The notes: a model not told the origin generated them from the sequence alone. Shown: positions 4,848-53,925, numbered from the stretch's first letter. The stretch is 64,000 nucleotides of DNA from Patella caerulea (GCA_036850965.1 JAZGQO010000011.1:61815281-61879280); one strand, 5' to 3'. Numbers and translations: made by a program.

Positions 4848-5088
4848 TGGGGAATTGGATGGCTGAATGGTTAGAATGTGCGCGCTGTATCCTAAGGTCA
4901 ACTGGCGCGGTTTTGATTCCCCGGTTGTACGTGACAAGGAGTAGAGTCGCCTGTCCAGCCTCGTGGGTTTTCTCCAGGTCCTCCAGTTTCCTCCCACTCC
5001 TCTATGTGCAAGCAAATTATTGGAATAAAATTGAACCATATGTTAGTCCCAAACTGACCTAGTTTGTGTCGCTTGGACGTTAAACTCC
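4848..5088 (+). mobile_element. SINE-A (head type 1: ...gttgtacgtgacaaggagtagagtcgcctgtcc...; conserved 3' domain)
   Basis: tRNA-like head, then cgtgggttttctcc..gtttcctcccac, then the conserved tail aaattgaaccatatgttagtcccaaactgacctagtttgtgtcgcttggacgttaaactc. Confidence 0.75.
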
Positions 5089-5929: not shown

Positions 5930-6700
5930 AGGATTTTCTTCACTAGATTTTTCATACTTTATAATTGGTTACTATAGAAACGGATTATGATTCATTTATT
6001 ATAGAGCAGGATTATAATGATTTAGTTACTATATATTGAAACTGGATTATAGAATTTAGATATTATAGAAACAGGATTATATGATTAGTAACTATAGAAA
6101 CATGATGGCTTGGTTTAGTTACTATAGCTATAGGATGGTATGATTTAGTAACTAAGAAACATGATGATTTGATTTGGTTACTATAGAAACGTAATGATTT
6201 AATGTAGTTACTATGGAATCTGGATGGTATAATATTATAGTTACTATAGAAACTTAATGATTTGAATTAATTACTATAGTAACAGGCTGGTATATGATGT
6301 ACTATAAAAACATGATTATATGATGTAGTTACTGTGTAACACTAATCATGTGGACTACCGTTTAGTTACTAGAAACATGATGATTTAATTTAGTTACTGT
6401 AGTAACATAATGGTATGGTTTAGTTACTATAGAAACTGGGCGGTATGATTTAGTTACTATAGAAACATGATTATATGATTTACTTATTATTGAACCATGT
6501 TTATTATGATTTAGAAATATGAAATAATTACTATTGAAACATGATGGCATGATTTTGTTACTATTGAAACATGATTATATGATATACCTACTATAGAAAC
6601 ATGATAATATGATTAAGTTACTATAGAAACAGGATTTAGTTACTACAGACATAGGATGGTACGATTTAGTTACTATAGAAACAGGATGGAATGTTTGGGT
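5930..6700. repeat. minisatellite, about 34-bp unit (tagttactatagaaacatgat-atgattt), about 22 copies
   Basis: Visible tandem periodicity with degenerate units. Confidence 0.7.
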
Positions 6701-7729: not shown

Positions 7730-7925
7730 TATTGTAATAATATACTGTTTTGTATTAAATAATATACTATTTATACCAGTCTGTATAAAATAATATACTG
7801 TTTATACTGTTCTGTATTAAATAATATACTGTTTACACTAGTCTGTATTAAATAATATACTTTTATACTGTTCTGTATAAAATAATGTACTCTTTATACT
7901 GTTCTGTATAAAATAATATTATACT
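7730..7925. repeat. minisatellite, about 35-bp unit (ctgttctgtattaaataatatactgtttata), about 5.5 copies
   Basis: Direct tandem repetition. Confidence 0.65.
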
Positions 7926-8580: not shown

Positions 8581-8977
8581 AGATAAATTATGTGAAATCA
8601 GATGAATAGTTACCTGCTCTGGCTATAACAATTAAAAAAATAGAGAATGTAAATAGAATACGTTGAAAATTTCAGTCAAATTACAACACTCTGAACCGAG
8701 ATATTAGCTTTTGAATTTTAAGCCTAGCCTTGATCGACATTACTAAAGTTGGTACAATTATAGTCTCGATTATCCATTTTTGTATTTATTCATCAATGCA
8801 CATTGAGCAACAGATTGGATTCAAGTCCAATAAAAATCTGACACATAAGATGACATCGGTAGTTGATTATGGTTTGGATAAGTTAATTAAAGTCTAATTA
8901 ATAGTTTATACTGTATACAATTTCAAGCCTTAAGAAAGACCTGCAATAGGCAGATTTAACGCTTGCATAATGTATGT
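8581..8977 (+). mobile_element. TTAA-flanked MITE family (diverged copy)
   Basis: ttaa|agataaattatg... at 8577; internal gaaaatttcagtcaaatt and atagtctcgattatccattt; ends ...gcataatgtatg|tttaaa. Confidence 0.6.
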
Positions 8978-11570: not shown

Positions 11571-12137
11571 CTGAAATAAATAAAATGCATTCTAATTTAT
11601 CTTCAGTTTAAGAAGATCAAAGACTGTCCATGACATTGCAAATCATATGACTTGAATGATCCCTGAGATGGTAGATTGTGGTCACAAACAAACTTAACAG
11701 TGAGTTTCGTCATGTTGTGGTCATAAATGGTAGATTGTGGTCACAAACAAACGTTACAGCGAGCTTTGTCAAGATGCGGTCATGAACGGTAGATTGTGGT
11801 CATAAACTGTCTAGAAAAAGAGAAGGCAAACAGCACTGATGAATTCATGTGAACACTTATTTAACAGCATCAGAAGTATGAGAAACTACATGTCCATGTT
11901 GCACCTAAATTGTCTGCCTTGATTTATCGCTAGAGGACCTTATCTGCTGGAAACAGTCAGCCAGCCTCTGGGTTTAAGCAGCTAATCTAGATCTTTTACT
12001 GATGCTCTTGTGCTCTCCCCAAATAAATAGGATTATCCTAAGGTTCTTTGGAGCCAAGGCCATGATTCAAACCAAGGTTATTTTAGCTCAGACTCTACTG
12101 ATGGACAATCAATGTTTCCCTGTGTTATAGTGAAGAT

Positions 12138-12655: not shown

Positions 12656-12686
<31 letters not shown>

Positions 12687-12809
12687 ACTGCTAAAGACCC
12701 CTACGCGCAAGCGAATTATTGAAATAAAATTAAACCATATGTTAGTCCCGAAATGACCCAGTTTGTGTCGAGTGGACGTTAAACCCTATTTCTCTCTCTC
12801 TCTCTCTCT
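12516..12809 (+). mobile_element. SINE-A (head type 2: gcctaatggactagagtgccgcacttcgacctctagctggccggtcacc...) with (CT)n tail and about 14-bp TSD tgagatggaaaaag
   Basis: Direct repeat ctgagatggaaaaag at 12502-12516 and 12808-12822. A different tRNA-like head from type 1 but the same 3' domain ...ctaaagacccctacgcgcaagcgaattattgaaataaaattaaaccatatgttagtcccgaaatgacccagtttgtgtcgagtggacgttaaacc. Confidence 0.8.
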
Positions 12810-13049: not shown

Positions 13050-13580
13050 TACATTATTTGTACCTGGTGTTGGCAAACAAATTTTCTCTGGAATTTGCAG
13101 GATGGTTTACCCTGGAGGACAAGGCATTGTCTAAGTACCATGGACACATTGATGAGCAAATAAAACACAAAATTTTTTGTACCTAGTGTTGGAAGAGAAA
13201 TTTTCTCTGGAATTTCCCGTTTGGTTTACCCTGGAGGGAGAGGCAGTATCTAGTCATTTGGTTTGGTCGAAAAATGGAGGTACCATGTACACATTGGTGA
13301 GCACGTAAAACACTAAATTTTTGGTACCTGGTGTTGGCAGAGAAATTTCCTCTTGAATCTCCAGTGTTGTTTACCCTGAAGGGCAAGGCAGTGTCTAATC
13401 ATTTGGATTGGTCGAAAAGCAGAGTTACCATGTACCCATTGGTGAGAACGTAAAAGAACACTTGAAATTTGTAATTTAGGCCATAGTGCCGCTGTCTGGG
13501 TACAATTTAATTCTGCATGGCTCTAGTCGTCTTCATTAGCCCAATCAGTGCAGAAAATGAAGACATAAAACCCAATGACC
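13050..13580 (+). repeat. SINE-B-derived tandem array: internal SINE-B segment (about 120-147 bp) repeated 3 times, then a normal SINE-B tail
   Basis: Units begin tttgtacctggtgttggca.agaaattt.ctct.gaat at about 13052, 13172 and 13319. The last unit runs into ...ccatagtgccgctgtctgggtac...cattagcccaatcagtgcagaaaatgaagacataaaaccc. Confidence 0.6.
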
Positions 13581-16165: not shown

Positions 16166-18199
16166 TTGCCAGCTTTTTATGACCTTATTCTTACTGTACT
16201 AAATAAACATGCCCCTATTAAAACCAGACGTGTAAAGTACCATACTCAACCCCCATGGTTTAATGATGAAATTAAAGATGCAAGAAAGAAGCGTGACTAT
16301 TATAAAATGATTGGAAATGACACTTTATATAAACAATGGCGTAATAAAACCAAAAAATTAATTGAGCAGGCTAAAACTGACCATGTTAAAGATATCATCA
16401 TAAATAAAAAAGACAATAAAACCATTTGGCAATATCTAAACTCTCTACAAGGAAAATCGTCATTAGGCCCAAATTACCCGCAAACTATCGAATATCATGA
16501 CTTTAAAACATCTGACCCTACTCAAATTACTGAATTTATGAATGAATATTTTACCAATATAACAGACTCTATAAAGCCTCCTTATAAACCGATCCAACAA
16601 CCACATATTATTCAAAATTATATAAATAACAAAGTCCCCCCAAATTTTCTATATGACTTACCTCCTATATCATTTCCAGAAGTACTGAAATATCTTAAAA
16701 ACCTACAACCAAAAAAGGCAACTGGTTTAGACAATCTTGGACCAAAAATTTTAAAAATGTCAGCTGAGGTGATTGCGAATCCACTAACTCATATTATTAA
16801 TTTATGTTTAACAAATTGTATTTTTCCTGATCAAATGAAAGAAGCAAAAATAGTGCCAATTTTTAAAAAAGGATCCAAAGAAATCATTTCCAATTATAGA
16901 CCAATTTCAATTTTACCAACCATTTCTAAAATTTTTGAGAAACATATATCTATCAATATTAAGTCCTACTTTGATAGTTTCAATTTATTTTATGTAAATC
17001 AGTCAGGTTTTAGAAAGTATCATTCATGTTCTACAGCACTAGTTCGAATTACTGATCACTGGCTTGAAGCTTTAGATCAAGGTAAACTAACAGGTGTTGT
17101 CTACCTGGATTTTAGTAAGGCTTTTGACCTTATTGATCACAAGCTCCTCCTTGACAAACTTGTATTATATAAATTTCATCCTAATCTGCTATATTTGATA
17201 AAATCTTATCTATCAAACCGAAATCAAAAAGTCTGTCTTGGTAATTTCCAATCAATACAAAGGAAACTAAAATGTGGTATTCCTCAGGGATCTATCCTTG
17301 GACCACTTTTATTTCTGATTTTCATAAATGATCTTCCACTTTTTACTAAAAATGTCATTCCCGAAATATTTGCTGATGATACTACCATTCATTTTTCTGA
17401 CAAGAATCTTGACTGCGTTCAAAGTTGTCTTCAAGAAGATTTAGACATTATCAGCCAATGGTGCAATGATAATGGTATGGTTATTAATATAAATAAAACT
17501 AAAAGTATGTTAATAAAAAACGTAAGAGACAGTGGAAAATGTATTTCCCTGTCCATTGGAAACCAGAAATTGGAGAATGTAACGGAAGCTGTCCTACTCG
17601 GAATTACAATAGATGATCACTTAGACTGGGGAAAACATATAATGAAGCTTCACTCTCTTGTTGGGTCAAAAATATATCTTCTAAATAGAATTAAAATAAA
17701 TCTACCTATAGAAACCCGAATTTTGTTTTATAATGCCTATATATTGTCTCATTTAGACTTTTGTAATATTGTTTGGGGTAATGCTTTCCAGAATAAAATT
17801 GACTTCCTATCTAAGCTTCAAAAACGTGCAGCGCGGAGTATCCTCGACGCGAAATATGACGCAAGATCGGCAGACTTGTTCTCTCAATTAAATTGGCTAA
17901 CTCTTGAACAACGAATTAAATATAACACTGGGATACTGACTTATAAAATTATGAATGGAAAATGTCCACATTACTTTCAAAATTATTTTTGCTTACAATC
18001 TTCTATGTCCACTACAATTCTCTGTCTACGTTCGGAAACAAAAAACTCATTACATCTTCCAAAATGTCGTATTGAGGCCATGAAAAGAACTTTTAAATAC
18101 AAGGCTAGCTTACTCTGGAATTCATTACCTCAGGTACTCAAACAATCTAACGATATATTGAGTTTTAAGACGGGACTGAAAAGGGAACTAAAATCTTAA
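16166..18199 (+). CDS. LINE reverse transcriptase ORF (677 aa; frame is open upstream to about 16121 without an ATG)
   Basis: Motifs PWFNDEI, YRPISILPTISKIFEKHI, FRKYHSCSTAL, GVVYLDFSKAFDLIDH, GIPQGSILGPLLFLIFINDL, FADDTTI. Confidence 0.85.
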   Translation: MPAFYDLILTVLNKHAPIKTRRVKYHTQPPWFNDEIKDARKKRDYYKMIGNDTLYKQWRNKTKKLIEQAKTDHVKDIIINKKDNKTIWQYLNSLQGKSSLGPNYPQTIEYHDFKTSDPTQITEFMNEYFTNITDSIKPPYKPIQQPHIIQNYINNKVPPNFLYDLPPISFPEVLKYLKNLQPKKATGLDNLGPKILKMSAEVIANPLTHIINLCLTNCIFPDQMKEAKIVPIFKKGSKEIISNYRPISILPTISKIFEKHISINIKSYFDSFNLFYVNQSGFRKYHSCSTALVRITDHWLEALDQGKLTGVVYLDFSKAFDLIDHKLLLDKLVLYKFHPNLLYLIKSYLSNRNQKVCLGNFQSIQRKLKCGIPQGSILGPLLFLIFINDLPLFTKNVIPEIFADDTTIHFSDKNLDCVQSCLQEDLDIISQWCNDNGMVININKTKSMLIKNVRDSGKCISLSIGNQKLENVTEAVLLGITIDDHLDWGKHIMKLHSLVGSKIYLLNRIKINLPIETRILFYNAYILSHLDFCNIVWGNAFQNKIDFLSKLQKRAARSILDAKYDARSADLFSQLNWLTLEQRIKYNTGILTYKIMNGKCPHYFQNYFCLQSSMSTTILCLRSETKNSLHLPKCRIEAMKRTFKYKASLLWNSLPQVLKQSNDILSFKTGLKRELKS

Positions 18200-19987: not shown

Positions 19988-20006
19988 AGAGAGAGAGAGA
20001 GAGAGG

Positions 20007-20045
<39 letters not shown>

Positions 20046-22184: not shown

Positions 22185-22581
22185 AGTTACATTATGGATG
22201 ATCAGATAAAGAGATGGCAGTTCTCACTATAATAGTTAAAAACTAGATAGTGTAAAGGTAATTTGCTGAAAATTTCAGTCAAATTGGTCCACTATTAGCC
22301 GAGAAAAAAGCGTTTGAAATATTCACATAGCCTCGGTCATCATTACTCAAATCATTAATATAAACAGCATAGTCTCGATTGTGCACTTGTTTGATTTAAT
22401 TATCAACGGCTATTAAGCGGCATATATGAATTCTATCCGCCAACATCGAAGGCTAGCGTTGACTTTAAGAGTTTATTATGGCCTGGATATGTTAATTAAT
22501 GTCTAATTGATTATTTAGATAACATCTCAGGTCTAAAGAAAGACCTGTTATAAGCAGATTTTGCTCTTGCATAATGCTATT
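22185..22581 (+). mobile_element. TTAA-flanked MITE family copy
   Basis: ttaa|agttacattatgg at 22181 ... gcataatgctat|tttaaa. Shared internal core ...ggcagttctcactataatagtt...gaaaatttcagtcaaatt...agcctcggtcatcattact...atagtctcgatt.... Confidence 0.65.
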
Positions 22582-22689: not shown

Positions 22690-22822
22690 CTACATCACTG
22701 CTAAAGACCCCTACGCGCAAGCGAATTATTGAAATACAATTAAACCATATGTTAGTCCCGAAATGACCTAGTTTGTGTTGAGTGAACGTTAAACCCCATT
22801 TCTTTCTCTCTCTCTCTCTCCC
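22690..22822 (+). mobile_element. SINE-A 3' fragment with (CT)n tail, preceded by (T)25
   Basis: ctaaagacccctacgcgcaagcgaattattgaaatacaattaaaccatatgttagtcccgaaatgacctagtttgtgttgagtgaacgttaaacc, then ctctctc. Confidence 0.65.
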
Positions 22823-23450: not shown

Positions 23451-26405
23451 CCCTTTAGTTCTACCGAGTGACCCATTACCAACTTACATAATATAATCGT
23501 CATAATAAAAAACCGGGATTTTATCAGCTAGATCATAAAACAAGATGAATTATATTTTATATCTGAAACAGAAAAGGCGTAGGTTTATTTCACCAAACCA
23601 AATATCACAGATAGGTTTATTTCTACATTTAACAAAAGTCAGGGTTGAAACAATAAATATGAATTATTATCTACTTCGTTTAGTCGTTACATGTTACGGG
23701 TTAATTTCAAAAACTTGACCTTTATCAAGGTGTATTAATAGGCCTTAAGGCAAAAATTTTGCCACCACTTGGCAGATTATGGCGATAACTTGCAACTAAA
23801 ATTGTTTATGTTGAATATGTAATTAAATATGAACTTATTAAAATCTGATATATTTTCATATTATTTTGTTTTTTTGTATTTTATCTTTTGAAAACTTTTT
23901 AAGAACATGTAAAATGTTGACGATATGATTTTGATGACTCATTAGGTCATTTTGGGAATAAAATGTCGTGTGTCTTTGTTTTCTATAATTTCCATTGCCC
24001 CCCAGTTGTGTTTTGTTGAGGTACGAAACCGCACGAAAAACCATAAAAATCCCACAATATGAGGCCACCATTGCAGATTCGTTAGTCTATATAATATTTA
24101 AGTTTTACTTTTCTTAAACTAATTTCGGAAATGTTGGCTGCTCAGTGCCGCTACGGCCTTATCTTAGTTATATCTCCAACAGTGGATCTTTAACGTGCTG
24201 GTCAATAATACATCGGGGTCGGAGGTTTCCCTGCTCCATCCCCATCCTGCCCCATCCCCAGCCTCTGACAGTGACAAGGGGGAAACTAGACTGAAAAGAC
24301 CCGAAGAAACTTGCTCAACCAACCCCAGGAACGAGCCCAGGAATACCTTACTAAGCGAACCACCGCGCACAGACGGAAAAAATAAAATTTTCCAAACTTT
24401 ATTTGTTGATTCAGAAGATTAAAATTTCCGGTTTCCATTTGTTTTATCTGGGAAATGATTTAACACTTTTGACGTTTGAAGATATTTATCTTAAAAAATG
24501 TTATAGTGGCCATAACTGGAGATATCTCGACATAAAATAATTAATTAAAAATATTTCAAATTTTCACATACAAAGATTTGATAAGTCTGAAGCCTGATGG
24601 TCATCACCCACTGTTATCGCTTTGTGTCCCTTTAAACATTCGTATACAACATTCATCCCACACAATATGAATTATCTGTTTGATGTGGATTACTTGTGAT
24701 CGATCTATCGATTAAATGATAAATATTTATTGACCTATAGCTGTATATTTGTAACAAGTTTAATATCAAACATTTAGTCTCGATGCTCGATATAGAAATA
24801 CGATAAATATCACCGATAACTTATCGCTTCATTCTATAATCGATTCGTATCACGACATGATCAAATTTATATTTATATATTATTCATAATCAAGCCTGAG
24901 TTACACAGTTATGGTTGGTGTTCATTCGAACAATACTAACATGAAAAAAAAGACCCCCCCCCCCTCCCCCCCCCCAAAAAAAAATAAAATAAAATAAAAT
25001 AAAATAAAACGAAATGGGGTTTATAATGTCGGTCTACACAGAAAGGAAATACAACTCCCGCACTAATATTCTCGATTAGAATGATGAGAGATACATAAAA
25101 GTCGACCTTGTACTCGTAATAATAACTTATCTCCTGTATTAGTCTATATCATCCATACATATATTCGATTTGTCTGGATGGGTCCTCAAAATTTGACGGA
25201 AAATAGGTCATTGTCTGGATTATCCAGTCTTTCAAGTTACCACGTACTGAATCTATCAAAACAGCACGCTTGTCAACGATGACACTCTTTCAAATTTTGT
25301 TTGTAAAGGTTTCAATTGAAATGGTAATTTCCTCTCGTCATGAATCAGACGTATGGCTTCTCACAATCTTCTTAATTCTTCATCGCGATCCATGCTTATT
25401 CCTCGTCTCTATTTTTGTTTCTAATAATAGATGTGCCAAGTGAATTGTGGGATATATTACAACCACGCTTTATAGAATCTAGCAAAATCGGCCCGGCTTC
25501 ATAAGATCTATCACTTACCGATACTTTAGCCAAAAGGTTCCATTGCCCATGCGTAACCAAATGTTTGGTTTTTTATGTGGTAGATCATCCAGTAATTTCG
25601 TCAAAAATTGAGAACCGACCCAGACCCTCCGTGCGTTGAAGACTGGGGGTTCTGGATGACCGAGACTACTTCTGTATTTGCGTCATATCCGGAACATGCG
25701 TACTGGCGTTGCGAATCAGCCATGGACACTGTTGTTACGGTATTCTAAATGAGTAAAATGGTGGATGGCCTGTACCATGTCTTTTCTTTCACTGTTTGGT
25801 CTCTTTTCAATATAAATTTTACTTCATTTTTAAAGATAAAAAAGTATTGTACGTCATAATGCGCGGATATGGTTATTTTTTTTTTTCATTTTGAAAAATT
25901 CAATAATAGGTCTAGTCCATAATAGGCCATAGGACAACAAGATTAGAGGAGTGGGTAGGGTGGGGTCGCCGAGATCAAGCTGGCAGACAATAGCTAGCAG
26001 ACATTAAGACCTTTTACCAGACAATTAGGGACAATCAACTCAGCATACAATAAGGAATTTGCTGGATGACCATGACTTCAGTGAAATCACGTGCTCTGTT
26101 TGGGCTAATCCGAGCCTTCGATAAATAAAATAAATTGAAAGTAGTCTATTTTTAGTAACTATGTTATTGTCTGATGGCGACGAATTTTTAGATCAAAATA
26201 AAAAGGCTATTTATCTCTTCTAAAGTGTGTTATTATGAATGTGCCAGAAAATAACAAGTACATTTAAAGAGCCATTGAAACTTACTTTCCGGTGATGTAT
26301 GACACGATAACTGGAATTTCGTATTAAGATCCTTATTTTGACATTAAACACTCGCCTCGCCTCGCCCCACCCCACCACACCGCTCGAATTCAGTTAGTGC
26401 AAGAG

Positions 26406-26407
<2 letters not shown>

Positions 26408-26438
<31 letters not shown>
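26408..26438. repeat. (T)31 homopolymer inside the left terminal flank, mirrored by (A)36 at 37970-38005
   Basis: Direct read. Confidence 0.9.
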
Positions 26439-26547
26439 CTATTTTAATAAAATATACATGCATTCCGCCTTAAGGTAAACTAAATAAAAGATTGACTTTA
26501 ATTTTGGAGCAAGTCTCCCATTCTTACTCCCCCCCCCGACTCCCTTC

Positions 26548-29437
26548 GCTTATTAAGATAAGTAAATATGAATGTGCCAGAAAATTATTTATATATTTGA
26601 AGAGAGCGTTCAATGTGCTTTTCAGTGATATATAACACCATGGCTGGAATTTCGTATTAAGAACCGTATTTTGGCATTGAATGCCCCCTCCCCCCTCACT
26701 ATAGAGTTAAAAGTACCACCCAACTTTGATCGCTTATTAAGGTAAGTAAATATGAATGTGCCAGAAAATTATTTATATATTTGAAAAGAGCATTTAACGA
26801 GCTTTTCAGCGATATATAACATCATGGCTGGAATTTCGTACTAAGAACCGTATTTTGGCATTGAATACCCCCCCCCTCCTTCACAATAGAGTTAAAAGTA
26901 CCACCCAACTTTGATCGCTTATTAAGGTAAGTAAATATGAATGTGCCAGAAAATTATTTATATATTTGAAGAGAGCATTCAACGTGCTTTTCAGTGATAT
27001 ATAACACAATGGCTGGAATTTCGTACTAAGATCCGTATTTTGGTATTGAATACCCCCCCCCCATCTTAGAGTTAAGTATCACCAAACTTTGATCGCTTAT
27101 TAAGGTAAGTAAATATGAATGTGCCAGAAAATTATGTATATATTTGAAGAGAACATTCAATGAGCTTTTCAGTGATATATAACATCATGGCTGGAATTTC
27201 GTACTAAGAACCGTATTTTGGCATTGAATACCCCCCCCCCCACTTCACTATAGAGTTAAAAGTACCACCCAACTTTGATCGCTTATTAAGGTAAGTAAAT
27301 ATGAATGTGCCAGAAAATTATGTATATATTTGAAGAGAAGATTCAATGAGCTTTTCAGTGATATATAACATCATGGCTGGAATTTCGTACTAAGAACCGT
27401 ATTTTGGCATTGAATACCCCCGCCCCTTACTATAGAGTTAAAAGTACCACCGAACTTTGATCTCTTATTAAGGTTAGTAAATATGAATGTGCCAGAAAAT
27501 TATTTATATATTTGAAGAGAGCATTAAACGTGCTTTTCAGTGATATATAACATCATGGCTGGAATTTCGTACTAAGAACCGTATTTTGGCATTGAATACC
27601 CCCGCCCCCTCCACTATAGAGTTAAAAGTACAACCCAATTTTGATCGCTTATTAACGTAAGTAAATATGAATGTGCCAGAAAATTATTTATATATTTGAA
27701 GAGACCATTCAACGTTCTTCTCAGCGATATATAACATCATGGCTGGAATTTCGTACTAAGAACCGTATTTTGGCATTGAATACCCCCGCCCCTTACTATA
27801 GAGTTAAAAGTACCACCCAACTTTGATCGCTTATTAAGGTAAGTAGATATGAATGTGCCAGAAAATTATTTATATATTTGAAGAGACCATTCAACGTGCT
27901 TTTCAGCGATATATAACATCATGGCTGGAATTTCGTACTAAGAACCGTATTTTGGCATTGAATACCCCCACCCCCACCTTCACTATAGAGTTAAAAGTAC
28001 CACCCAACTTTGATCGCTTATTAAGGTAAGTAAATATGAATGTGCCAGAAAATTATGTATATATTTGAAGAGAACATTCAATGGGCTTTTCATTGATATA
28101 TAACATCATGGCTGGAATTTCGTACTAAGAACCGTATTTTGGCTTTGAATACCCCCCCCTTCACTATAGAGTTAAAAGTACCCCCAACTTTGATCGCTTA
28201 TTAAGGTAAGTAAATATGAATGTGCCAGAAAATTATTTATATATTTGAAGAGAGCATTAAACACGCGTTTCAGTGATATATAACACAATGGCTGGAATTT
28301 CGTACTAAGATCCGTATTTTGGCATTGAATACCCCCCCCCATCTTAGGGTTAAGTATCACCCAACTTTGATCGCTTATTAAGGTAAGTAAATATGAATGT
28401 GCCAGAAAATTATTTATATATTTGAAGAGAGCATTAAACACGCGTTTCACTGATATATAACATAATGGCTGGAATTTCGTACTAAGATCCGTATTTTGGC
28501 ATTGAATACCCCCCCCCCCCCCCACATCTTAGAGTTAAGTATCACCCAACTTTGATCGCTTATTAAGGTAAGTAAATATGAATGTGCCAGAAAATTATGT
28601 ATATATTTGAAGAGAACATTCAATGAGCTTTTCAGTGATATATAACATCATGGCTGGAATTTCGTACTAAGAACCGTATTTTGACATTGAATCCCCCCCC
28701 TTCACTATAGAGTTAAAAGTACCACCCAACTTTGATGGCTTATTAAGGTAAGTAAATATGAATGTGCCAGAAAATTATTTATATATTTGAAGAGAACATT
28801 CAATGAGCTTTTCAGTGATATATAACATCTTGACTGAAATTTCGTACTAAGAACCGTATTTTGGCATTGAATCCCCCTCCCCTTCACTATAGAGTTAAAA
28901 GTACAACCCAACTTTGATCGCTTATTAAGGTAAGTAAATATAAATGTGCCAGAAAATTATTTATATATTTGAAGAGAGCATTCAACGGGCTTTTCAGTGA
29001 TATACATCATCATGGCTGGAATTTCGTACTAAGAATCGTATTTTGGCATTGAATACCCCCCCCCCACCTTCACTATAGAGTTAAAAGTACCACCCAGCTG
29101 TGATCGCTTATTAAAGTAAGTAGATATGAATGTGCCAGAAAATTATTTATATATTTGAAGAGAGCATTAAACACGCGTTTCAGTGATATATAACATCATG
29201 GCTTGAATTTCGTACTAAGAACCGTATTTTGACATTGGATTCCCCCCCCCCCTTCACTATAGAGTTAAAAGTACCACCCAACTTTGATCGCTTATTAAAG
29301 TAAGTAAATATGAATGTGCCAGAAAATTATTTATATATTTGAAGAGACCATTCAACGTGCTTTTCAGTGATATAGAACATCATGGCTGGAATTTCGTACT
29401 AAGGACCGTATTTTGGCATTGAATCATATCTACTTAC
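26548..29437 (+). repeat. satellite array, about 178-185-bp monomer, about 16 copies, forward orientation
   Basis: Monomer cttattaaggtaagtaaatatgaatgtgccagaaaattatttatatatttgaagaga.cattcaa.g.gcttttcagtgatatataacatcatggctggaatttcgtactaagaaccgtattttggcattgaata(C)n..ttcactatagagttaaaagtaccacccaactttgatcg. The poly-C tract length varies between monomers. Confidence 0.9.
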
Positions 29438-30179
29438 CTTAATAAGCTATAGTGAAGGGGAGGGGTTATTCAATGCCAAAATACGATTCTTAATAGGAAA
29501 TTATATATCACTGAAAAGCTCATTGAATGTTCTCTTCGAATATATAAATAATCTTCTGGCACATTCATATTTACTTACCTTAATAAGCGATCAAAGTTGG
29601 GTGGTACTTTTAACTCTATAGTGAAGGGGGGGGGGTATTCAATGCCAAAATACGGTTCTTAGTACGAAATTCCAGCTATGATGTTATATGTCGCTGAAAA
29701 GCTCATTGAATGTTCTCTTCAAATTTTCTGGCACATTCATATTTACTTACCTTAATAAGCGATCAAAGTTGGGTGGTACTTTTAACTCTATAGTGAAGGG
29801 GGGGTATTAATGCCAAAATACGGTTCTAAGCACGAAATTCCAGCCAAGATGTTATATATCACTGAAAAGCTCATTGGATGTTCTCTTCAAATATATAAAT
29901 AATTTTCTGGCACATTCATATCTACTTACTTTAATAAGCGATCAAAGTTGGGTGGTACTTTTAACTCTATAGTGAAGGGGAGGGGTTATTCAATGCCAAA
30001 ATACGATTCTTAGTACGAAATTCCAGCCATGATGTTATATATCACTGAAAAGCACGTTTACTTACCTTAATAAGCGATCAAAGTTGGGTTGTACTTTTAA
30101 CTCTATAGGGAAGGGGGGTTGGTATTAATGCCAAAGTACGGTTCTAAGCACGAAATTCCAGCCAAGATGTTATATATCA
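29438..30179 (-). repeat. the same satellite in reverse orientation, about 4 copies, head-to-head with the forward array
   Basis: Orientation switches at about 29437. The first reverse copy lacks the 28-bp segment gatcaaagttgggtggtacttttaactc. Confidence 0.85.
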
Positions 30180-31257
30180 TAGACTGTCGTCTGTCAGTAG
30201 CTATCGTTTCAAAAAATTTCTATAAAATGGGTTTAGTTGTAAAGTCACACATTAGTAAAATGTGAATTTTTATGGATAAAAAGCCGCCTTCCCGCTTCTA
30301 GAATGTCCCAGTTTTTAGAAACGAGTCGTCGCAAGTTTCTGTTCGCGCCATGAAGTTTATCAACCATTATTTACACCTGATGCATATCATTAAAACAACC
30401 AACCAATCAAAAACACTCTAGAGCCAATTTGACCTCAAGTTCACAGGTCAAAAGGTGAGTCTGAGTTAGCGTGTTTACTTTAAGACGACGAAGTGCCTCA
30501 TCCACCTCGTAGACAAAGATTGTGGAAACCTGTTTGAATTTACAGATACCAGTTGGAATAAGGTTGTTTTAAGTTTTAAAGAATGGACAAATCTTGATGG
30601 CAACGAGCTAAAAGTGTGCCAACAATATAAAGATGTATTAATGGTAAGTTTATCAACTAAATCAAACTAAAATTGAAAGTAGAGTCGCCATTTTATTTTT
30701 CAGCGAAACACAGAATGATAGGCGGATTAAATTTTATAGACACCTGTACTTATCACAAATGATCGGGACTGTACAACGCAACGAGAGCTTACGTCCGTAT
30801 ATAATATTTCTTGTTTGTTGTCATTGCTGTGTGCAAGTTGAAGTTACGATAAATAATAATAATGTTTGTTGACATTCACATTGTATAGTCTCGTTATATA
30901 GTTCATAGATAGGTTTGTTTTAAAATCGATAGCATTCACGTGCTAGCCTTTGGTTATATTTTATTAACCCCAGATTGTCTAAGTGTCTTTTCACAAATCA
31001 AGTGCAGACAGGTGGCAGTGTCTTATTGTTTTTCATAAAAGAAAAGTAATTTTTATTATGGATATTTGTTGCCACCTAAATTCTTCTCTCAGGTTCTAAT
31101 TTGCTTATTTTGTTTATGTGTGCAATAAAATTAGGAGTCAGTATGTTTGTATTTATAGGGAATAAAGATGATGCACTATGTGACTATGGGTTTATGGCTA
31201 TCATTCCAAGTGTTATTCGAGATTCACAGACAGAACAAAGATTGAACGAGCTACTAA

Positions 31258-31492
31258 AAGAGTTGCATTAGGCGACAGTCTGGTGAGAAGCAAACAAGTG
31301 ATGAGAGTCAATCCACCTCTAGAGAAGGTTTGCGATCAGCCTCCACTAAATCATCAACCACCCAAGCTGTCCACCTGCGAGGACATGTCTTTCCTCCTCT
31401 GGGCATTATCTGCAAGAAAATACCTTTGTTCTACAGGTGTCAGAATAAGAATGTCTCTGATAAGCTGGTTTTAGCAGAAATTAAAGATGGGG
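31258..31492 (+). CDS. candidate coding exon inside the nested TIR element (...STKSSTTQAVHLRGHVFPPLGIICKKIPLFYRCQNKNVSDKLVLAEIKDG)
   Basis: Open frame from a stop at 31255 to donor GG|GTAAGT at 31493. The phase-1 leftover joins the next candidate exon in frame. Confidence 0.3.
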
Positions 31493-31974
31493 GTAAGTTT
31501 TTATTATTTGTTCAACCGTTGTGATTTAGTATTGTCCCCCCCACCCTCCTTTCCCTTTCCTGGCTATGCCCAGTGTTACCTAGTGGAATAGGCCCATCGA
31601 CCCTCCTCAGCGTGTCGTAAAAGGCATTTATTGGGGAGAGTGGTCGGGTGGCCGATAGGTGTTATCTATCAGTCTGTCATCAATAGTCGAGGGTATGAGT
31701 CTCATTCTCTGCGATCTCAATGAAAACGTGTGGGAGTAGCCTATCCAAACACGCAGGGTTATGTACATGTATTTACCAGGTCTGCCAAAAGTTGTCTAGT
31801 TCATTGTTAAAAGTAGGCTGCTACATACAAAGCCTATTATACACATAAAACTGTTGCATAAAGAATTTTATGGGTTTTTTTATTTATGCATATGTAACCA
31901 GAAAACGAATATGCATTCTACTGCTAGTTGGTTTATGATATCCATGATATTTACAATTTTCCATATTTTTTTAG

Positions 31975-32135
31975 GGCGACTTAGAGAAGTAGCAATTAAG
32001 AAAGAAGATGAAACCATTCTCAGGCACATCAGAGATAAAGACTGTGTTGCTGTTGAAGTTAGGTACCATCTACGATGCTACAAGAATTATGTTCGATTCC
32101 TAACAAGAAAACCCACAGTTCAGTCTTCTGGGTAA
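31975..32135 (+). CDS. candidate second exon (G)RLREVAIKKEDETILRHIRDKDCVAVEVRYHLRCYKNYVRFLTRKPTVQSSG*
   Basis: Acceptor ccatatttttttag|gg. Frame is continuous with 31258-31492. Ends at TAA 32133-32135, or at alternative donor TGG|GTAAAT. Confidence 0.3.
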
Positions 32136-32429
32136 ATTTATTTCATACTTGTAGTAATTGTTGTGTCCTTGTGGCTTGTTGTTATATCTATTTTATATCA
32201 TAGGCCTACATAGGCAACTAGTGGGTGGGAAGGGATTTATATAGCCAAGTGGTTACAAAAAGGTCTGTCATCAATGGACTTAAATTTGAATCCCACTATC
32301 AGCGACCTCAATGACAAGGTGTGGGAGTAGCCGATTTATTCTATACTCTATAGTATAAGTAGTGCTGGTATATTTGATGGCAAGGGAATTGGCACAAAAT
32401 GACTAGATTGTGGTGTCCAAATGCACTAA

Positions 32430-33110
32430 AACATCCGTTCTAAGAATGTGTCAACATTTTTTACTAGCACTTGTACTAGTTTTGAAATGTTTTAAATTAC
32501 AATACACAGACATGATTTATATCTATTTTAACCTTTAAAAAAATATATCACTAGATAAAGATGAATAAATATGTACATACTTTTCCATCTTTTGATTTTA
32601 GTATTTTGTTTAACTGTTTGTTTTACCTGTATTTTACATACTAACTACATGTATAATATTCAACTACTTTATGTCCAGATTTAATTGAATTATTATTTTA
32701 ACAAAACAAAGGGTTTTCTTTATTTTAAAATTAGTTTTGAAATGTTGTTTTTAATTATAATACACAGGCATGATTCATATCTTTAAAAGATAACCAAACA
32801 ATATATCGAAAGATAAATAAATGTGTAAATACTTTTCCATTTGTTGATATTAGTACTTTGTTTAACTGTTTTTATATTTTCTTATATTTTATATTTTAAC
32901 TATTTAAGCATTAATTATTGCACAACTGTTACAGCAACATTTATAAAAATTATTGATATAACAGTTATTAAAAATGAAAAAAATGTATTCTGTATTTTAA
33001 AAAAATATTGATATTGAAATGTTGTTGTAAATTGCAATACAAAGGCCTAATTTATATTTATTTAAACCTTTAATACTAGTCATTACATAAAAGATTAATG
33101 TTTTAAATTT
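32430..33110. repeat. AT-rich tandem repeat, about 300-bp unit, about 2.5 copies, inside the nested element
   Basis: Units start near 32430, 32730 and 33005 (...gttttgaaatgtt.t.taaattacaatacacag.catgatttatatct...ttttccat.tt.tgat.ttagta.tttgtttaactgtt...). Confidence 0.5.
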
Positions 33111-33757
33111 GTTTTCATTCTTTGTTTGGTGATAGGGTGGGTTGCCAAGGAGAAATTTAGTCTTTGTTCAATATTTATAGGTCATTTATGATACGAGTTA
33201 TCTCCCCTTATACCTTTTTACCTGGGACCTGTCTTTGAAATATCACGTTTATGTATTGTTTTTTGGTTGAAATCAAATATTTCTATGCAATTATCAAATT
33301 TATGTATGATTTCTGATAATAAATTAAATTCAATATCAATACAATGACGCTGTATTTTCATAAAAAGACAAAAACATGCTACGATGTGCAACATTACTGC
33401 TTTGTGGGCGCTTATAATTGGTCCTGTGCATATACAAATTGAGATATTTCCATAATTTTTTTTTTCAAATGTTGCTGTGCACTTTGGCAGTACACACGAA
33501 AAAAATTATTCACCTGCAGTTATTTTATCATCCAAAATCACAACGTCAAAGTCATGTTAGACAAGCATGATAAAGTGACCGAGACCCTGGGTAAATGGGT
33601 AATATTTTAAAAACTGGCAATATCTGAAGGTGGGAATATGGATTTTCCATCACTAGAAACCTTGTATTATAAGAAAATGGCAACATTTTTTAGACCCAGG
33701 GGGGGTGCAACAAAAATTAATTTTTAAGCACATTTTCCCTATACAGACGACAGTCTA

Positions 33758-36700
33758 TCACTGAAAAGCTCATTGAATGTTCTCTTCAAATATATAAATA
33801 ATTTTCTGGCACATTCATATTTACTTACCTTAATAAGCGATCAAAGTTGGGTGGTACTTTTAACTCTATAGTGAAGGGGGGAGGATTCAATGTCAAAATA
33901 CGGTTCTTAGTACGAAATTCCAGTCAAGATGTTATATATCACTGAAAAGCTCATTGGATGTTCTCCTCAAATATATAAATAATTTTCTGGCACATTTATA
34001 TTTACTTACCTTAATAAGCGATCAAAGTTGGGTGGTACTTTTAACTCTATAGTGAAGGGGAGGGGGATTCAATGTCAAAATACGGTTCTTAGTACGAAAT
34101 TCCAGCCATGATGTTATATATCACTGAAAAGTACGCTGAATGCTCTTTTCAAATATATACATAATTTTCTAGCACATTCATATTTACTTACCTTAATAAG
34201 CGATCAAAGTTGGGTGATACTTAACTCTAAGATGGGGGGGGGTATTCAATGCCAAAATACGGATCTTAGTACGAAATTCCAGCCATTATGTTATATATCA
34301 CTGAAACGCGTGTTTAATGCTCTCTTCAAATATATAAATAATTTTCTGGCACATTCATATCTACTTACTTTAATAAGCGATCAAAGTTGGGTGGTACTTT
34401 TAACTCTATAGTGAAGGGGGGGGGGTATTCAATGCCAAAATACGGTTCTTAGTACGAAATTCCAGCCAAGATGTTATATATCACTGAAAAGTGCATTGAA
34501 TGTTCTCTTCAAATATATAAATAATTTTCTGGCACATTCATATCTACTTACCTTAATAAGCGATCAAAGTTGGGTGGTACTTTTAACTCTATAGTGAAGG
34601 TGGGGGTGGGGGTATTCAATGCCAAAATACGGTTCTTAGTACGAAATTCCAGCCATGATGTTATATATCGCTGAAAAGCACGTTGAATGGTTTCTTCAAA
34701 TATATAAATAATTTTCTGGCACATTCATATTTACTTACCTTAATAAGCGATCAAAGTTGGGTGGTACTTTTAACTCTATAGTAAGGGGCGGGGGTATTCA
34801 ATGCCAAAATACGGTTCTTAGTACGAAATTCCAGCCATGATGTTATATATCGCTGAAAAGCACGTTGAATGGTCTCTTCAAATATATAAATAATTTTCTG
34901 GCACATTCATATTTACTTACCTTAATAAGCGATCAAAGTTGGGTGGTACTTTTAACTCTATAGTGAAGGGGGCGGGGGTATTCAATGCCAAAATACGGTT
35001 CTTAGTACGAAATTCCAGCCATGATGTTATATATCACTGAAAAGCACGTTGAATGGTCTCTTCAAATATATAAATAATTTTCTGGCACATTCATATTTAC
35101 TAACCTTAATAAGAGATCAAAGTTCGGTGGTACTTTTAACTCTATAGTAAGGGGCGGGGGTATTCAATGCCAAAATACGGTTCTTAGTACGAAATTCCAG
35201 CCATGATGTTATATATCACTGAAAAGCTCATTGAATCTTCTCTTCAAATATATAAATAATTTTCTGGCACATTCATATCTACTTACTTTAATAAGCGATC
35301 AAAGTTGGGTGGTACTTTTAACTCTATAGTGAAGGGGGGGGGGTATTCAATGCCAAAATACGGTTCTTAGTACGAAATTCCAGCCAAGATGTTATATATC
35401 ACTGAAAAGCGCATTGAATGTTCTCTTCAAATATATAAATAATTTTCTGGCACATTCATATCTACTTACCTTAATAAGCGATCAAAGTTGGGTGGTACTT
35501 TTAACTCTATAGTGAAGGTGGGGGGTGGGGGTATTCAATGCCAAAATACGGTTTTTAGTACGAAATTCCAGCCATGATATTATATATCGCTGAAAAGCAC
35601 GTTGAATGGTCTCTTCAAATATATAAATAATTTTCTGGCACATTCATATTTACTTACCTTAATAAGCGATCAAAGTTGGGTGGTACTTTTAACTCTATAG
35701 TGAAGGTGGGGGGGTATTCAATGTCAAAATATGGTTCTTAGTGCGAAATTCCAGCCATGATAATATATATCACTGAAAAGCACGTTGAATGCTCTCTTCA
35801 AATATATAAATAATTTTCTGGCACATTCATATTTACTTACCTTAATAAGCGATCAAAGTTGGGTGGTTCTTTTAACTCTATAGTGAAGGGAGGGGGGTAT
35901 TCAATGCCAAAATACGGTTCTTAGTACGAAATTCCAGCTATGATGTTATATATCGCTGAAAAGCTCGTTAAATGTTCTTTTCAAATATATAAATAATTTT
36001 CTGGCACATTCATATTTACTTACGTCAAAAAGCGATCAAAGTTGGGTGGTACTTTTAACTCTGTAGTGAAGGGGAGGGGTTATTCAATGTCAAAATACGG
36101 TTCTTAGTACGAAATTCCAGCCATGATGATATATATCACTGAAAAGCCCGTTGAATGCTCTCTTCAAATATATAAATAACTTTCTGGCACATTCTTATTT
36201 ACTTACCTTAATAAGCGATCAAAGTTGGGTGGTACTTTTAACTCTATAGTGAAGGGGGGGGGGTATTCAATGCCAAAATACTGTTCTTAGTACGAAATTC
36301 CAGCCATGATGTTATATATCACTGAAAAGCACGTTGAATGCTCTTTTCAAATATATAAATAATTTTCTGGCACATTCATATTTACTTACCTTAATAAGCG
36401 ATCAACGTTGGGTGGTACTTATAACTCTATAGTGAAGGTTGGGGGGGAGGTTTATTCAATGCCAAAATACGGTTCTTAGTACGAAATTCCAGCCATGATG
36501 TTATATATCACTGAAAAGCTCATTGAATGTTCTCTTCAAATATATACATACTTTTCTGGCACATTCATATTTACTTACCTTAATAAGCGATCAAAGTTGG
36601 GTGATACTTAACTCTAAGATGGGGGGGGGGTATTCAATGCCAAAATACGGATCTTAGTACGAAATTCCAGCCATTATGTTATATATCACTGAAACGCGTG

Positions 36701-36944
36701 TTTAATGCTCTCTTCAAATATATAAATAATTTTCTGGCACATTCATATCTACTTACTTTAATAAGCGATCAAAGTTGGGTGGTACTTTTAACTCTATAGT
36801 GAAGGGGAGGGGTTATTCAATGCCAAAATACGATTCTTAGTACGAAATTCCAGCCATGATGTTATATATCACTGAAAAGCACGTTGAATGCTCTTTTCAA
36901 ATATATAAATAATTTTCTGGCACATTCATATTTACTTACCTTAA
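33758..36944 (-). repeat. satellite array, reverse orientation, about 18 copies
   Basis: Same monomer as 26548-29437 in reverse complement. Confidence 0.9.
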
Positions 36945-37482
36945 ACATACATTATGGGAGAGCAAAAACTGACTTTAGTCGGTCTTCCTTTGAGCCTCAG
37001 ATGTCATAGAAATTATAAATTAGATCTTTATTTAAACAATAAGCCCAAAATGAACACTGTAGACCCCCGGATGGCTTGGATTGGGCTCGGATTAAAACAG
37101 GATTTCGTCGACTGATTTAATCACTATGGCGTCGTGGGTGGGGTTTCTCCGTGACGTTGACGTCATCTTCCGGAAATTATTCATAAAAGACAGTGATGAC
37201 CGAGGCTATACACAAGCTTCACTAGATACCGTTTAATCATTACTTGATGATCGAGACTATGTAGGTGGAGTTAACGCCTGTCAATCAACAATCGGCCATA
37301 GTGGGAAAAGGGTGTCGATGATTTTAACTACCATTTCTAGTAAAAAATTATAGTGGTAACAACTTTGTTCAGGATAAAGTTATTTGACTGAAATTTTCAA
37401 TATATTCATGTTTCAACATCTATTTTTGAACTTTTATAGCAAGAATGGCTAACTCCTTGTCAAAATCTCCCATAATGTATCT
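36945..37482 (-). mobile_element. TTAA-flanked MITE (538 bp) nested in a satellite monomer, TSD TTAA
   Basis: ccttaa|acatacattatgggagag... ...ctcccataatgtatct|ttaataagc. Uninterrupted monomer reads ccttaataagc. Internal gactgaaattttcaa is the reverse complement of the family core. Confidence 0.7.
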
Positions 37483-37870
37483 TTAATAAGCGATCAAAGT
37501 TGGGTGGTACTTTTAACTCTGTAGTGAAGGGGAGGGGGTATTCAATGCCAAAATACGGTTCTTAGTACGAAATTCCAGCCATGATGTTATATATCGCTGA
37601 AAGGCTCGTTAAATGCTCTTTTCAAATATATAGATAATTTTCTGGCACATTCATATTTACTTACCTTAATAAGCGATCAGAGTTGGGTGGTACTTTTAAC
37701 TCTAAAGTGAGGGGGGGGGGGGGGGGGCATTCAATGCCAAAATACGGTTCTTAATACGAAATTCCAGCCATGATGTTATATATCACTGAAAAGCACATTG
37801 AACGCTCTCTTCAAATATATAAATAATTTTCTGGCACATTCATATTTACTTACCTTAATAAGCGAAGGGA
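37483..37870 (-). repeat. satellite, reverse orientation, about 2 copies, adjoining the right terminal flank
   Basis: Direct read. Confidence 0.85.
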
Positions 37871-37965
37871 GTCGGGGGGGGGGGGGTGTAAGAATGGGAG
37901 ACTTGCTCCAAAATTAAAGTCAATCTTTTATTTAGTTTACCTTAAGGCAGAATGCATGTATATTT

Positions 37966-38008
<43 letters not shown>

Positions 38009-38729
38009 CTCTTGGACAAACTGAATTCGAGCGGTGTGGTGGGGTGGGGCGAAGCGAGGCGAGTGTTTAATGTCAAAATAAGGATCTTAATACGAAATTC
38101 CAGTTATCGTGTCATACATCACCGGAAAGTAAGTTGCAATGGCTCTTTAAATGTACTTGTTATTTTCTGGCACATTCATAATAACACACTTTAGAAGAGA
38201 TAAATAGCCCTTTTATTTTGATTTAAAAATTCGTCGCCATCAGACAATAACATAGTTACTAAAAATAGACTACTTTCAATTTATTTTATTTATCGAAGGC
38301 TCGGATTAGCCCAAACAGAGCACGTGATTTCACTGAAGTCATGGTCATCCAGCAAATTCCTTATTGTATGCTGAGTTGATTTTCCCTAATTGTCTGGTAA
38401 AAGGTCTTAATGTCTGCTAGCTATTGTCTGCCAGCTTGATCTCGGCGGTGGGGTCGAAGCATTAAATTAATGGATTAAGTTATTTTTGGGGTATGTCATT
38501 TAAAAACACCTTTTTACACGGGCCAACCAATGCACCCTCCCTAAAGTCTTGATTCGTCCCGTTTATCAGGTGAATTACGGTAGATTGAATACTGATAGTG
38601 GTAACGTGATAAACACGATTCATACTTTATTGTTTTATTTAACATAGAATTCAACACCTGCCTTTCTCGTATGAAAAACATTATCATAAATATTTCACTA
38701 CAGTCTCGACGTCTTAATTAAAACCATAA

Positions 38730-39125: not shown

Positions 39126-39144
39126 AGGGGTGGGTGTGGTGAGT

Positions 39145-39360
39145 TATCATCCACTCGACACAAATCCGGTAATTTCGGAACTAACGTATGGTTCAAATTT
39201 CATTTCAATAATTCGATTGCGCGTAGAGATTCTAAGCAGAAGGCGGAAACTTGAGGACCCTGAGGGAACCCGGACGACCATACTCGTTCTTACGTATACA
39301 AGCGAGAAAGCTCAACTGCACACTTGACTCAATGAAAGATCTTATGATTTATACCGCGCT
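39145..39360 (-). mobile_element. SINE-A (diverged, reverse orientation)
   Basis: ...ccactcgacacaaatccggtaatttcggaactaacgtatggttcaaatttcatttcaataattcgattgcgcgtagag... Confidence 0.6.
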
Positions 39361-39433: not shown

Positions 39434-39553
39434 GGAGAGAGAGAGAGAAATGGGATTTAGCGTCCACTCAACACAAACTAGGTCATTTCGGGACTAACGT
39501 ATGGTTTAATTTTTATTTCAATAATTCGCTTGCGCGTAGGGGTCTTTAGCAGT

Positions 39554-39584
<31 letters not shown>

Positions 39585-46589: not shown

Positions 46590-47055
46590 GCTTCAGATGT
46601 TATAGACATTATCAATCAGACCTTTATTTACACGATAAGCTCAAAATCAAATATGTAGACCCTCGGGCGGTTTTGATATAGGTTAGATCTAAAATTAAAT
46701 CAATAAATGTCTGACAAAGCTAACGTTTACCGTTAGTCGCTGACCTCACTACCAGAAACTGGCGATGAAAGGCCTGCCCAGCGGGGGTATACCATGGCCA
46801 TTGAGAATGTCACTTGATAATCGAGAATATGTGATTGGAGTTATCGTCTGTTAATCAAACGATCAGAAATTGTCGTAGACGGTGCAGACACAGTTGATGT
46901 ATATATAGCCATTTCTAATCCAAACTTCCAACAGTGACAACTGCGTTCATGATAAAGTAATTTGACTGAAATTTTCAATATTTTCTTTTTCTATCATCTA
47001 GTTTTGAAACCGTGGGTTTTCTTTTGGACTTTTCCAATCTGCTTCATCTCTTATT
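46590..47055 (-). mobile_element. TTAA-MITE family, long variant (same subtype as 36945-37482)
   Basis: ...cttcagatgttatagacattatcaatcagacctttatttacacgataagctcaaaatcaaatatgtagaccctcggg... parallels 36990-37080; ...gtaatttgactgaaattttcaatatttt.... Confidence 0.5.
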
Positions 47056-50770: not shown

Positions 50771-50813
<43 letters not shown>

Positions 50814-52190: not shown

Positions 52191-52720
52191 CCGAAATATG
52201 AAGAAGAATAGGCGGAACATATATGTATTCACATTCATTTATTCATATGATTCAGACTACGCCTGTTCACCAACCCCTTTCTTTATAGAACAAATTAATT
52301 GTTTAAAAAACGACTCATCTTTTTTACAAATAAACGTCTGTATCGTTATATAAAAGGTAAAATTAGAATCAAAAACACGTCACAAATAATCTCCTAGATT
52401 GTCCCATATTATGGTCAACAATTGTGTCTAAATGCAGACCTAAACGCAATTATCGTGGCTTTAGAAATGCTTGTAATGATAATCGAGTCTATTGTTTCGA
52501 TTATCCTGTCCTAAAAGTCTGATTTATTGTTGTTGTCTTTGACTTGAGGCTCAGATTAAATAGATTAAACGTTGACGTATTTTTTCTATACGTAAATTGT
52601 CGTGTTAATTTCTAATGTATCAATGACAAATCTGTAACATCAGCATTTTCTAATCGTGTCTCTGATGTCAGATAAAATTGAAATTGGTCGACTCGATATG
52701 CATAAGGTCAAACATATAAA

Positions 52721-52960
52721 GAGAGAGAGAGAGAGAGAGAGAGATGGGGTCATTTTGGGACTAACAAATGGGTAATTTTAGTTTAATAATTGACTTGCGC
52801 GTAGGGGTCTTTAGGATGGAAACCGGAGTACCCGGGGAAAACCCACGAGGTTGGACAGGCGACCCTACTCCTTGCCACGTACAACCGGAGATTCGAAACC
52901 ACGCCAACTAAATCAATGGCAGGCCGAATGGTTAGCGTGCGTGGTTTAAAAAGGGGAGCC
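52721..52960 (-). mobile_element. SINE-A head type 1 (reverse orientation) with (GA)12
   Basis: ...ggacaggcgaccctactccttgccacgtacaaccggagattcgaaaccacgccaactaaatcaatggcaggccgaatggttagcgtgcgtgg. Confidence 0.7.
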
Positions 52961-53081: not shown

Positions 53082-53095
<14 letters not shown>

Positions 53096-53132
<37 letters not shown>

Positions 53133-53370
53133 GGGGTTTAACGTCCACTCGACACAAACCAGGTCATTTCGGGACTAACATATGGTTTATTTCTATTTCA
53201 ATAATTCGCTTGTGCGTTGGGGTCTTTAGCAGTGGGAGGAAACCGGAGTACCCGTAGGAAACCCACGAGGCGCCCCTATCTCCATGCCACATACGCCCAC
53301 ACCAGGGATCGAAACCACAGTCGCCAGCTAGAAGTGACCGGCGCGGCACTCTAGACCACTAGGCCACCCC
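53096..53370 (-). mobile_element. SINE-A head type 2 (reverse orientation) with (GA)17
   Basis: ...gatcgaaaccacagtcgccagctagaagtgaccggcgcggcactctagaccactaggccacccc. Confidence 0.8.
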
Positions 53371-53714: not shown

Positions 53715-53925
53715 TATATCATAAGGTCTGTCATTTAGTCAACTGGCGTGGTTTTTATTCCCCGGTTGTATGTGACAAGGAGTAGGGTCGCCTGTCCCAC
53801 CTCAGGGTACTCTGGTTTCCTCTCACTGCTAAATAACCCTACGCACAAGCGAATTATTGAAATAGAATTTAACCATGTGTTAGTCCCGAAATGACCTATA
53901 GTTTGTCTCGAATGGATGTTAAACT
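53715..53925 (+). mobile_element. SINE-A head type 1
   Basis: gtcaactggcgtggtttttattccccggttgtatgtgacaaggagtagggtcgcctgtcc...gaattattgaaatagaatttaaccatgtgttagtcccgaaatgacc. Confidence 0.7.

Follow-up and report, generated by a model that had tools for sequence, protein, structure and literature searches.

Foldback-type DNA transposons with tandem repeats in their inverted termini have been described in insects. In Tetris, from Drosophila virilis, a flanking domain, which can reach 866 bp, precedes ~220-bp repeats, and the two have 37 bp in common; the element has no open reading frames (ORFs) and makes target duplications of 8-10 bp (PMC4079207). Galileo, a foldback-like member of the P superfamily in Drosophila, makes 7-bp duplications and carries ~210-bp repeats in its termini, beginning a few hundred bp in from the tip; non-autonomous copies with two termini have the longest ones, and the number of repeats is independent in each arm (PMC3573991). 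The Rehavkus foldback elements of Tribolium hold satellite repeats within their inverted termini (PMC12581902). In molluscs, the dispersal of satellites has so far been credited mainly to Helentron-derived elements (HINEs), in which a left flank with a microsatellite precedes an array of 160-190-bp repeats (PMC7492417). Here, we analysed a stretch of 64,000 nucleotides from Patella caerulea (GCA_036850965.1 JAZGQO010000011.1:61815281-61879280; hereafter the window), in which two arrays of a ~182-bp satellite meet head to head. We consider it probable that the entire inverted structure around this junction, at positions 25967-38447, represents a single foldback-type DNA transposon, old and non-autonomous, in a mollusc-like genome.

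The inverted homology spans 12,481 bp and terminates at a single base on each side. The left arm is 3,458 bp long and the right arm 9,023 bp, of which 4,900 bp are left after excision of two nested transposons that are described below. The cleaned unit of 8,358 bp consists nearly entirely of inverted arms (3,458 + 4,900 bp). An earlier note on this DNA had described a near-perfect palindrome of 4 kb by 4 kb, which overstates the symmetry given the unequal arms, the two insertions and an identity of only 84-88% near the centre. The right arm is first interrupted 755 bp from the centre, and the symmetry centre of the outer flanks, at ~32207, lies away from the junction of the arrays at 29424/29425.

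Each arm begins with a terminal domain outside the satellite. The left domain (25967-26545, plus strand, 579 bp) has a sharp outer boundary and shows 98% inverted identity to 37878-38447; its inverted copy on the right occupies 37866-38447 (minus strand). The flanks are thus inverted copies of each other, as had been claimed, but the further claim that they are identical does not hold. In the window, the outermost 25 bp of the left domain match the two ends of the unit only. Two tandem 14-bp repeats (AGCTGGCAGACAAT / AGCTAGCAGACATT) are located at 25978-26005 (plus strand), 12 nt from the tip, and are mirrored at 38389-38430. The motif CAGACAWT occurs three times per end within the first 60 bp; the whole window contains 19 occurrences where 4.8 are expected, and 8 of the 19 are inside the two terminal domains. 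These subterminal motifs are candidate transposase-binding sites. The domain also contains a degenerate monomer-like segment (26234-26345, plus strand; mirror copy at 38069-38180) with ~77% identity to positions 66-177 of the satellite monomer, and a run of 31 T residues (26408-26438, plus strand), mirrored by a run of 37 A residues at 37970-38006. Neither a palindrome nor a subterminal inverted-repeat pair was found in the terminal domain.

The heptamer GTGGGGT abuts the end of the inverted homology on the left (25960-25966, plus strand) and recurs in direct orientation against the right tip (38448-38454, plus strand), forming a candidate target-site duplication. The flanks are identical at a length of 7 only, and mismatch at lengths 8 and 9. 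Two random 7-mers of the window match by chance with a probability of 1.7e-4; GTGGGGT itself is present 9 times in 128 kb (both strands of the window). It also occurs once inside each terminal domain (26369-26375 and 38039-38045), in a C/G-rich tract (GCCCCACCCCACCACACC). These internal copies may be a coincidence in G-rich sequence, or may reflect a target preference that resembles the element's own sequence.

Since only one copy of the unit is at hand, the main rival explanation is a local inverted duplication of flank and array, produced by template switching, by fold-back priming after a break or by an inversion within the array. The product would be a 'macro-dyad' like those of Tribolium centromeres, and the 7-bp repeat would be coincidental. 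We regard this origin as rather unlikely. A fold-back or breakage-fusion-bridge event is expected to create just one new outer junction and to leave no direct repeat at the flanks, whereas here both ends are sharp and carry the same 7-mer, which a local duplication leaves unexplained. The terminal motifs resemble transposon ends, and the satellite to be duplicated is missing from the rest of the window. A local event is in line with the failure to find a second copy of the unit in the scanned collections, and with features of the centre that are discussed below.

The anatomy of the unit is that of the foldback class: very long terminal inverted repeats dominate the element, tandem repeats are present within the termini in unequal number between the arms, and a duplication (GTGGGGT) stands against both termini. 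There is no ORF of at least 120 aa in the unit, as in non-autonomous foldback copies. The ~182-bp monomers are confined to 26234-38180 within the window, and the satellite acts as cargo of the unit and not as part of a larger satellite block. We favour the foldback reading because the unit combines sharp boundaries at two ends, the direct 7-bp repeat, subterminal tandem motifs and a terminal domain with sequence in common with the repeats, and also because of the unequal repeat number, the lack of coding capacity and the confinement of the satellite.

With the cleaned arms aligned, the mirror identity is 96-99.5% per 183-bp window from the outer ends inward to ~28894 in the left arm, a distance of ~2.9 kb. 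In the ~530 bp on either side of the junction it is only 84-88%, the ordinary level between unrelated monomers, and the central ~1 kb is not mirror-orthologous. Single monomers are ~96% identical to the array consensus, with no gradient along the arms. The left arm contains 16 monomers and the right arm ~25, and ~1.3 kb of the right arm (about 7 monomers) has no counterpart in the left arm. These partnerless monomers are located in the middle part of the reverse array (33758-36944, minus strand), roughly at 35345-36446 and 36632-36812; the outer part of the reverse array (37483-37865, minus strand) consists of further satellite monomers.

Clustering of the monomers gave a variant order, from the tip of each arm inward, of ABCDEFGHEIIDJKLH in the left arm and ABNIDSKRQHEEFHHEIPOJKNMEJ in the right arm. 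The order is mirrored between the arms, as AB.D and then EF.HEI..JK. It is broken at the extra block of the right arm and at the innermost monomers (two on the left, four on the right), which are not mutual counterparts and not each other's best matches. The monomer-by-monomer comparison of the arms, for which the earlier note had called, therefore gives mirrored variants over the outer part of the unit and unmatched monomers at its centre. Within the right arm, the pairs 34244-34424/36632-36812 and 34427-34606/35345-35525 are 99.4% identical, which indicates recent duplication or conversion inside that arm. As this value exceeds the identity between the arms, exchange within the arm must have continued after the arms diverged.

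The distribution of identity bears directly on a fold-back or breakage-fusion-bridge origin, which is expected to yield arms that mirror each other up to a short spacer with uniform identity. A fold-back at the junction would make the arms equally alike at the centre and at the ends, and the non-mirrored centre (84-88%, against 96-99.5% further out) argues against it. The observed pattern, with the outer 2.9 kb mirrored and the innermost monomers not, is the reverse of the prediction.

The mirrored order also bears on a second rival, in which two one-directional satellite-carrying elements, for example HINEs as found in oysters, were brought head to head by nested insertion or by recombination between arrays. 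The resemblance lies in the mollusc host, in an array of ~160-190-bp monomers that comes after a flank containing a simple-sequence run, and in a satellite that is the cargo of a transposon (PMC7492417); both arms here have a flank with a run of 31-37 T residues, and then the array. However, HINEs have one-directional arrays between unlike modules, subterminal inverted repeats, a 3' palindrome and no target duplication (PMC7492417). In the unit described here, the arrays are inverted, the same module is present at both ends, and there is a 7-bp direct repeat. A right-flank module, a 3' palindrome and a subterminal inverted-repeat pair were not found in the flanking domain, and the unit does not lie between two T residues. 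Mirrored variant order at 96-99.5% identity means that the arms are copies of one array and not two independent elements. We consider an origin from two such elements improbable.

The head-to-head junction itself is real, and the sequence quoted for it in the earlier note is exact. The forward array (26546-29424, plus strand) consists of 16 monomers of ~182 bp without any deletion of at least 8 bp, and ends at 29424 with ...CCGTATTTTGGCATTGAAT. From 29425 onwards all monomers are reversed. The reverse array opens in the middle of a monomer, at 29425, with CATATCTACTTACCTTAATAAGC|TATAGTGAAGG. Its first 45 nt (29425-29469, minus strand) form an asymmetric centre, a partial reverse monomer from which alignment to the consensus shows 28 bp to be deleted after 29447. 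Both the small asymmetric centre and this deletion had been recognized before; a further deletion of 14 bp near 29502, also seen in the alignment to the consensus, had not. Pairing joins the final 18 nt of the forward array to 29470-29487, so that the 45 nt between them stay unpaired. The hairpin potential that had been proposed is borne out by the predicted DNA snap-back fold of 466 nt around the junction (-164 kcal/mol, z = -30). Microhomology at the junction amounts to 1 bp only, which, together with the short asymmetric centre, is compatible with a local inverted duplication.

The inner reverse array (29425-30179, minus strand), whose segment 29425-30060 has no mirror orthology with the left arm, contains deletions of 28, 14, 11 and 47 bp. 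These are all four deletions of at least 8 bp, relative to the consensus, in 7.2 kb of array, and all fall within 29425-30059, in the 635 bp beside the junction and in one arm. Under a uniform expectation such clustering has p ~6e-5, calculated as (635/7197)^4 in a post hoc test. This deletion-bearing centre shows no excess of substitutions relative to the consensus, so it is not an older or decayed array, but one that is specifically prone to deletion. In long palindromes, cleavage of hairpins or cruciforms and replication slippage give rise to deletions close to the centre, and the resulting asymmetric centre stabilises the structure. The deletion cluster fits such instability of a palindrome centre, which may have been its cause; in this respect the interpretation in the earlier note stands. 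The asymmetric centre had earlier been read as the scar of a breakage-fusion or template-switch event. The centre does look scarred, with its four deletions crowded into the 635 bp beside the junction. However, neither a breakage-fusion event nor template switching is supported as the source of the structure as a whole, because of the sharp ends with their direct 7-bp repeat, the subterminal motifs and the non-mirrored innermost monomers.

According to the foldback reading, a transposase of the cut-and-paste type, provided in trans, would have inserted a unit of ~8.4 kb (before the later insertions), after recognising its terminal and subterminal motifs and cutting the target with a 7-bp stagger. 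The pre-insertion site would read ...GGAGTGGGTAGG-GTGGGGT-CGAAGCATTAAATT..., with one GTGGGGT. The arms, each composed of a 580-bp terminal domain and an array of 182-bp monomers, would have abutted at 29424/29425 without a real middle segment. Afterwards, monomers would have been gained and lost independently in each arm through unequal exchange. Processing of hairpins or cruciforms at the symmetry centre, or replication slippage there, may account for the clustered small deletions and for the asymmetric centre of 45 nt. Finally, two unrelated transposons would have entered the right arm.

Of the described elements, Tetris resembles the unit in its order of domains, in which tandem repeats (182 bp here) lie inward of an outer flanking domain (580 bp here), and in a flanking domain that is related to the repeats, here through the degenerate monomer with 77% identity (PMC4079207). 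Coding capacity is lacking in both, the repeat number varies by arm, and the repeats can act as satellite DNA. The likeness considered is one of anatomy, with none expected in sequence, and the host belongs to another phylum. The duplication of 7 bp is outside the 8-10 bp of Tetris and Mutator-like foldback elements. Tetris has inner and middle domains, whereas the arms here abut with an unpaired centre of 45 nt (and about 1 kb of non-mirrored monomers), and the arms are 2-3 times longer than in Tetris. Galileo shares the 7-bp duplication and the long inverted termini with internal tandem repeats that are unequal between the arms. The termini of Galileo reach ~1.25 kb and have 0-3 repeats, against 16 and ~25 monomers here, and a transposase-coding relative is known for Galileo but none for the unit at 25967-38447. 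The length of the duplication fits a Galileo- or P-like enzyme better than the Mutator-like range. A more specific proposal is that the unit belongs to a mollusc foldback family with Galileo-like 7-bp duplications, whose termini have grown to 3-5-kb arrays of a 182-bp satellite, several times the arm length of the Drosophila foldback elements, and which thereby created and dispersed the satellite; we put this forward only tentatively.

A satellite in inverted termini is also found in Rehavkus, and multi-kb inverse subarrays with stem asymmetry are found in the macro-dyads of Tribolium (PMC12581902). The orientation switch in the latter consists of an abruptly cut monomer followed by a reversed one, as it does here (PMC12581902). 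However, the Tribolium dyads recur in megabase centromeric arrays with conserved inversion segments (PMC12581902), whereas the structure in the window is one isolated unit in euchromatin-like sequence rich in transposable elements, with a single visible junction, terminal domains that are unique and a duplication at its flanks.

Several observations weigh against the foldback reading. The unit is known as a single copy: neither the terminal 25-26-mer nor the most conserved 23-mer of the satellite had an exact match in the collections of metagenomes and prokaryote genomes that were scanned (0 hits), and the 64-kb window yielded no second copy and no paralogous empty site. Because no other copy was retrieved, the case for mobility rests on the anatomy and on one 7-bp repeat. 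The unit contains no transposase ORF, its termini (CGCCGAG...) were matched to no known superfamily, and its arms of 3.5-4.9 kb are longer than the maxima given for Galileo (1.25 kb) and Tetris (1.7 kb).

Two transposons are nested in the right arm. The first is a non-autonomous DNA transposon of 3,578 bp (30180-33757) with perfect 15-bp inverted ends (TAGACTGTCGTCTGT) and a duplication of TCA at 30177-30179 and 33758-33760. It has no ORF of at least 100 aa. An internal direct repeat of ~140 bp (32477-32619 and 32732-32871, 80% identical) and an AT-rich stretch with 20% GC (32500-33000) are present in this element. The second is a miniature inverted-repeat transposon of 538 bp (36945-37482) without coding capacity, which has 17-bp inverted ends with one mismatch and a TTAA duplication, a piggyBac-like or Kolobok-like target. 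Its segment 37356-37479 resembles 46934-47008, 8618-8681 and 22188-22284. Excision of either nested element restores the monomer consensus exactly, and both are therefore later insertions. The possibility that 30180-33757 is the 'middle domain' of the foldback element was rejected because of its own perfect 15-bp inverted ends and TCA duplication, and because its excision restores a monomer.

The insertions are also relevant to the question of whether the inverted structure is an artefact of assembly, caused either by a long read that is a snap-back chimera or by two arrays that were wrongly joined. Palindromic chimeras are known from long-read libraries. Snap-back arms would match within the read error, whereas the arms here differ by 2-4% and by about 7 monomers. 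Both nested transposons, each with its own duplication, are present in one arm only, and the sequence at both outer flanks is unique. The chance of an artefact is accordingly very small.

If the unit is truly a foldback element, the link between foldback elements and satellites, described in insects (Tetris, Galileo, Rehavkus), would also hold in a mollusc-like genome, and the locus would be a clean example of a satellite that resides in transposon termini. The unit is also a natural experiment on long palindromes, in which the outer arms have kept 96-99.5% identity and small deletions have gathered only beside the centre. Should a mollusc family of such elements exist, the deletions gathered at the centre would show, as a natural record, how a multi-kb palindrome is tamed by its genome. 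Inversions can also arise from ectopic recombination between such long inverted arms, as is the case with Galileo. The value of the description lies in the anatomy and in its use for annotation, and specialists will find it unsurprising.

The satellite consensus is ~65% AT and contains no GGCC. The monomer was compared with PcH-Sat of Patella (179 bp, 58.7% AT), which is defined by HaeIII, and identity of the two was rejected on account of the AT content and the absence of GGCC. Strings from the monomer had no match in the literature text searched. Rfam and tRNA scans of the window gave nothing, and thus no evidence for an origin from a short interspersed nuclear element or a tRNA.

The window as a whole is eukaryotic and rich in transposable elements, and its sole long ORF encodes the reverse transcriptase of a long interspersed nuclear element (LINE; 677 aa, 16166-18199, plus strand; Pfam RVT_1, E = 2.6e-31). 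The best named relatives of this ORF are molluscan, with Patella caerulea first at 56% and Pinctada next; no match is close, and the placement is at the level of molluscs. As the relatives are ~1000 aa long and have an N-terminal endonuclease domain, the copy in the window is 5'-truncated or frameshifted.

An interspersed family of ~130-bp repeats has at least 13 copies in the window, with an identity of 75-87%. They include 12656-12776, 39137-39271, 39451-39584, 53138-53264 and 53800-53927, as well as 5000-5087, 22711-22784, 57622-57703, 59306-59424 and others. Several copies directly adjoin (GA)n/(CT)n microsatellites (for example 19988-20043, 50771-50810, 52720-52744, 53086-53129 and 59532-59578), which suggests that the family is a short element ending in a dinucleotide repeat. 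Tandem repeats unrelated to the 182-bp satellite are located at 6054-6689, 7741-7919, 13135-13455 and 11668-11807; they comprise, in this order, a 30-bp minisatellite (~20 copies, 66-88% matches) and repeats of 31 bp (5.8 copies), 145 bp (2.2 copies) and 59 bp (2.4 copies).

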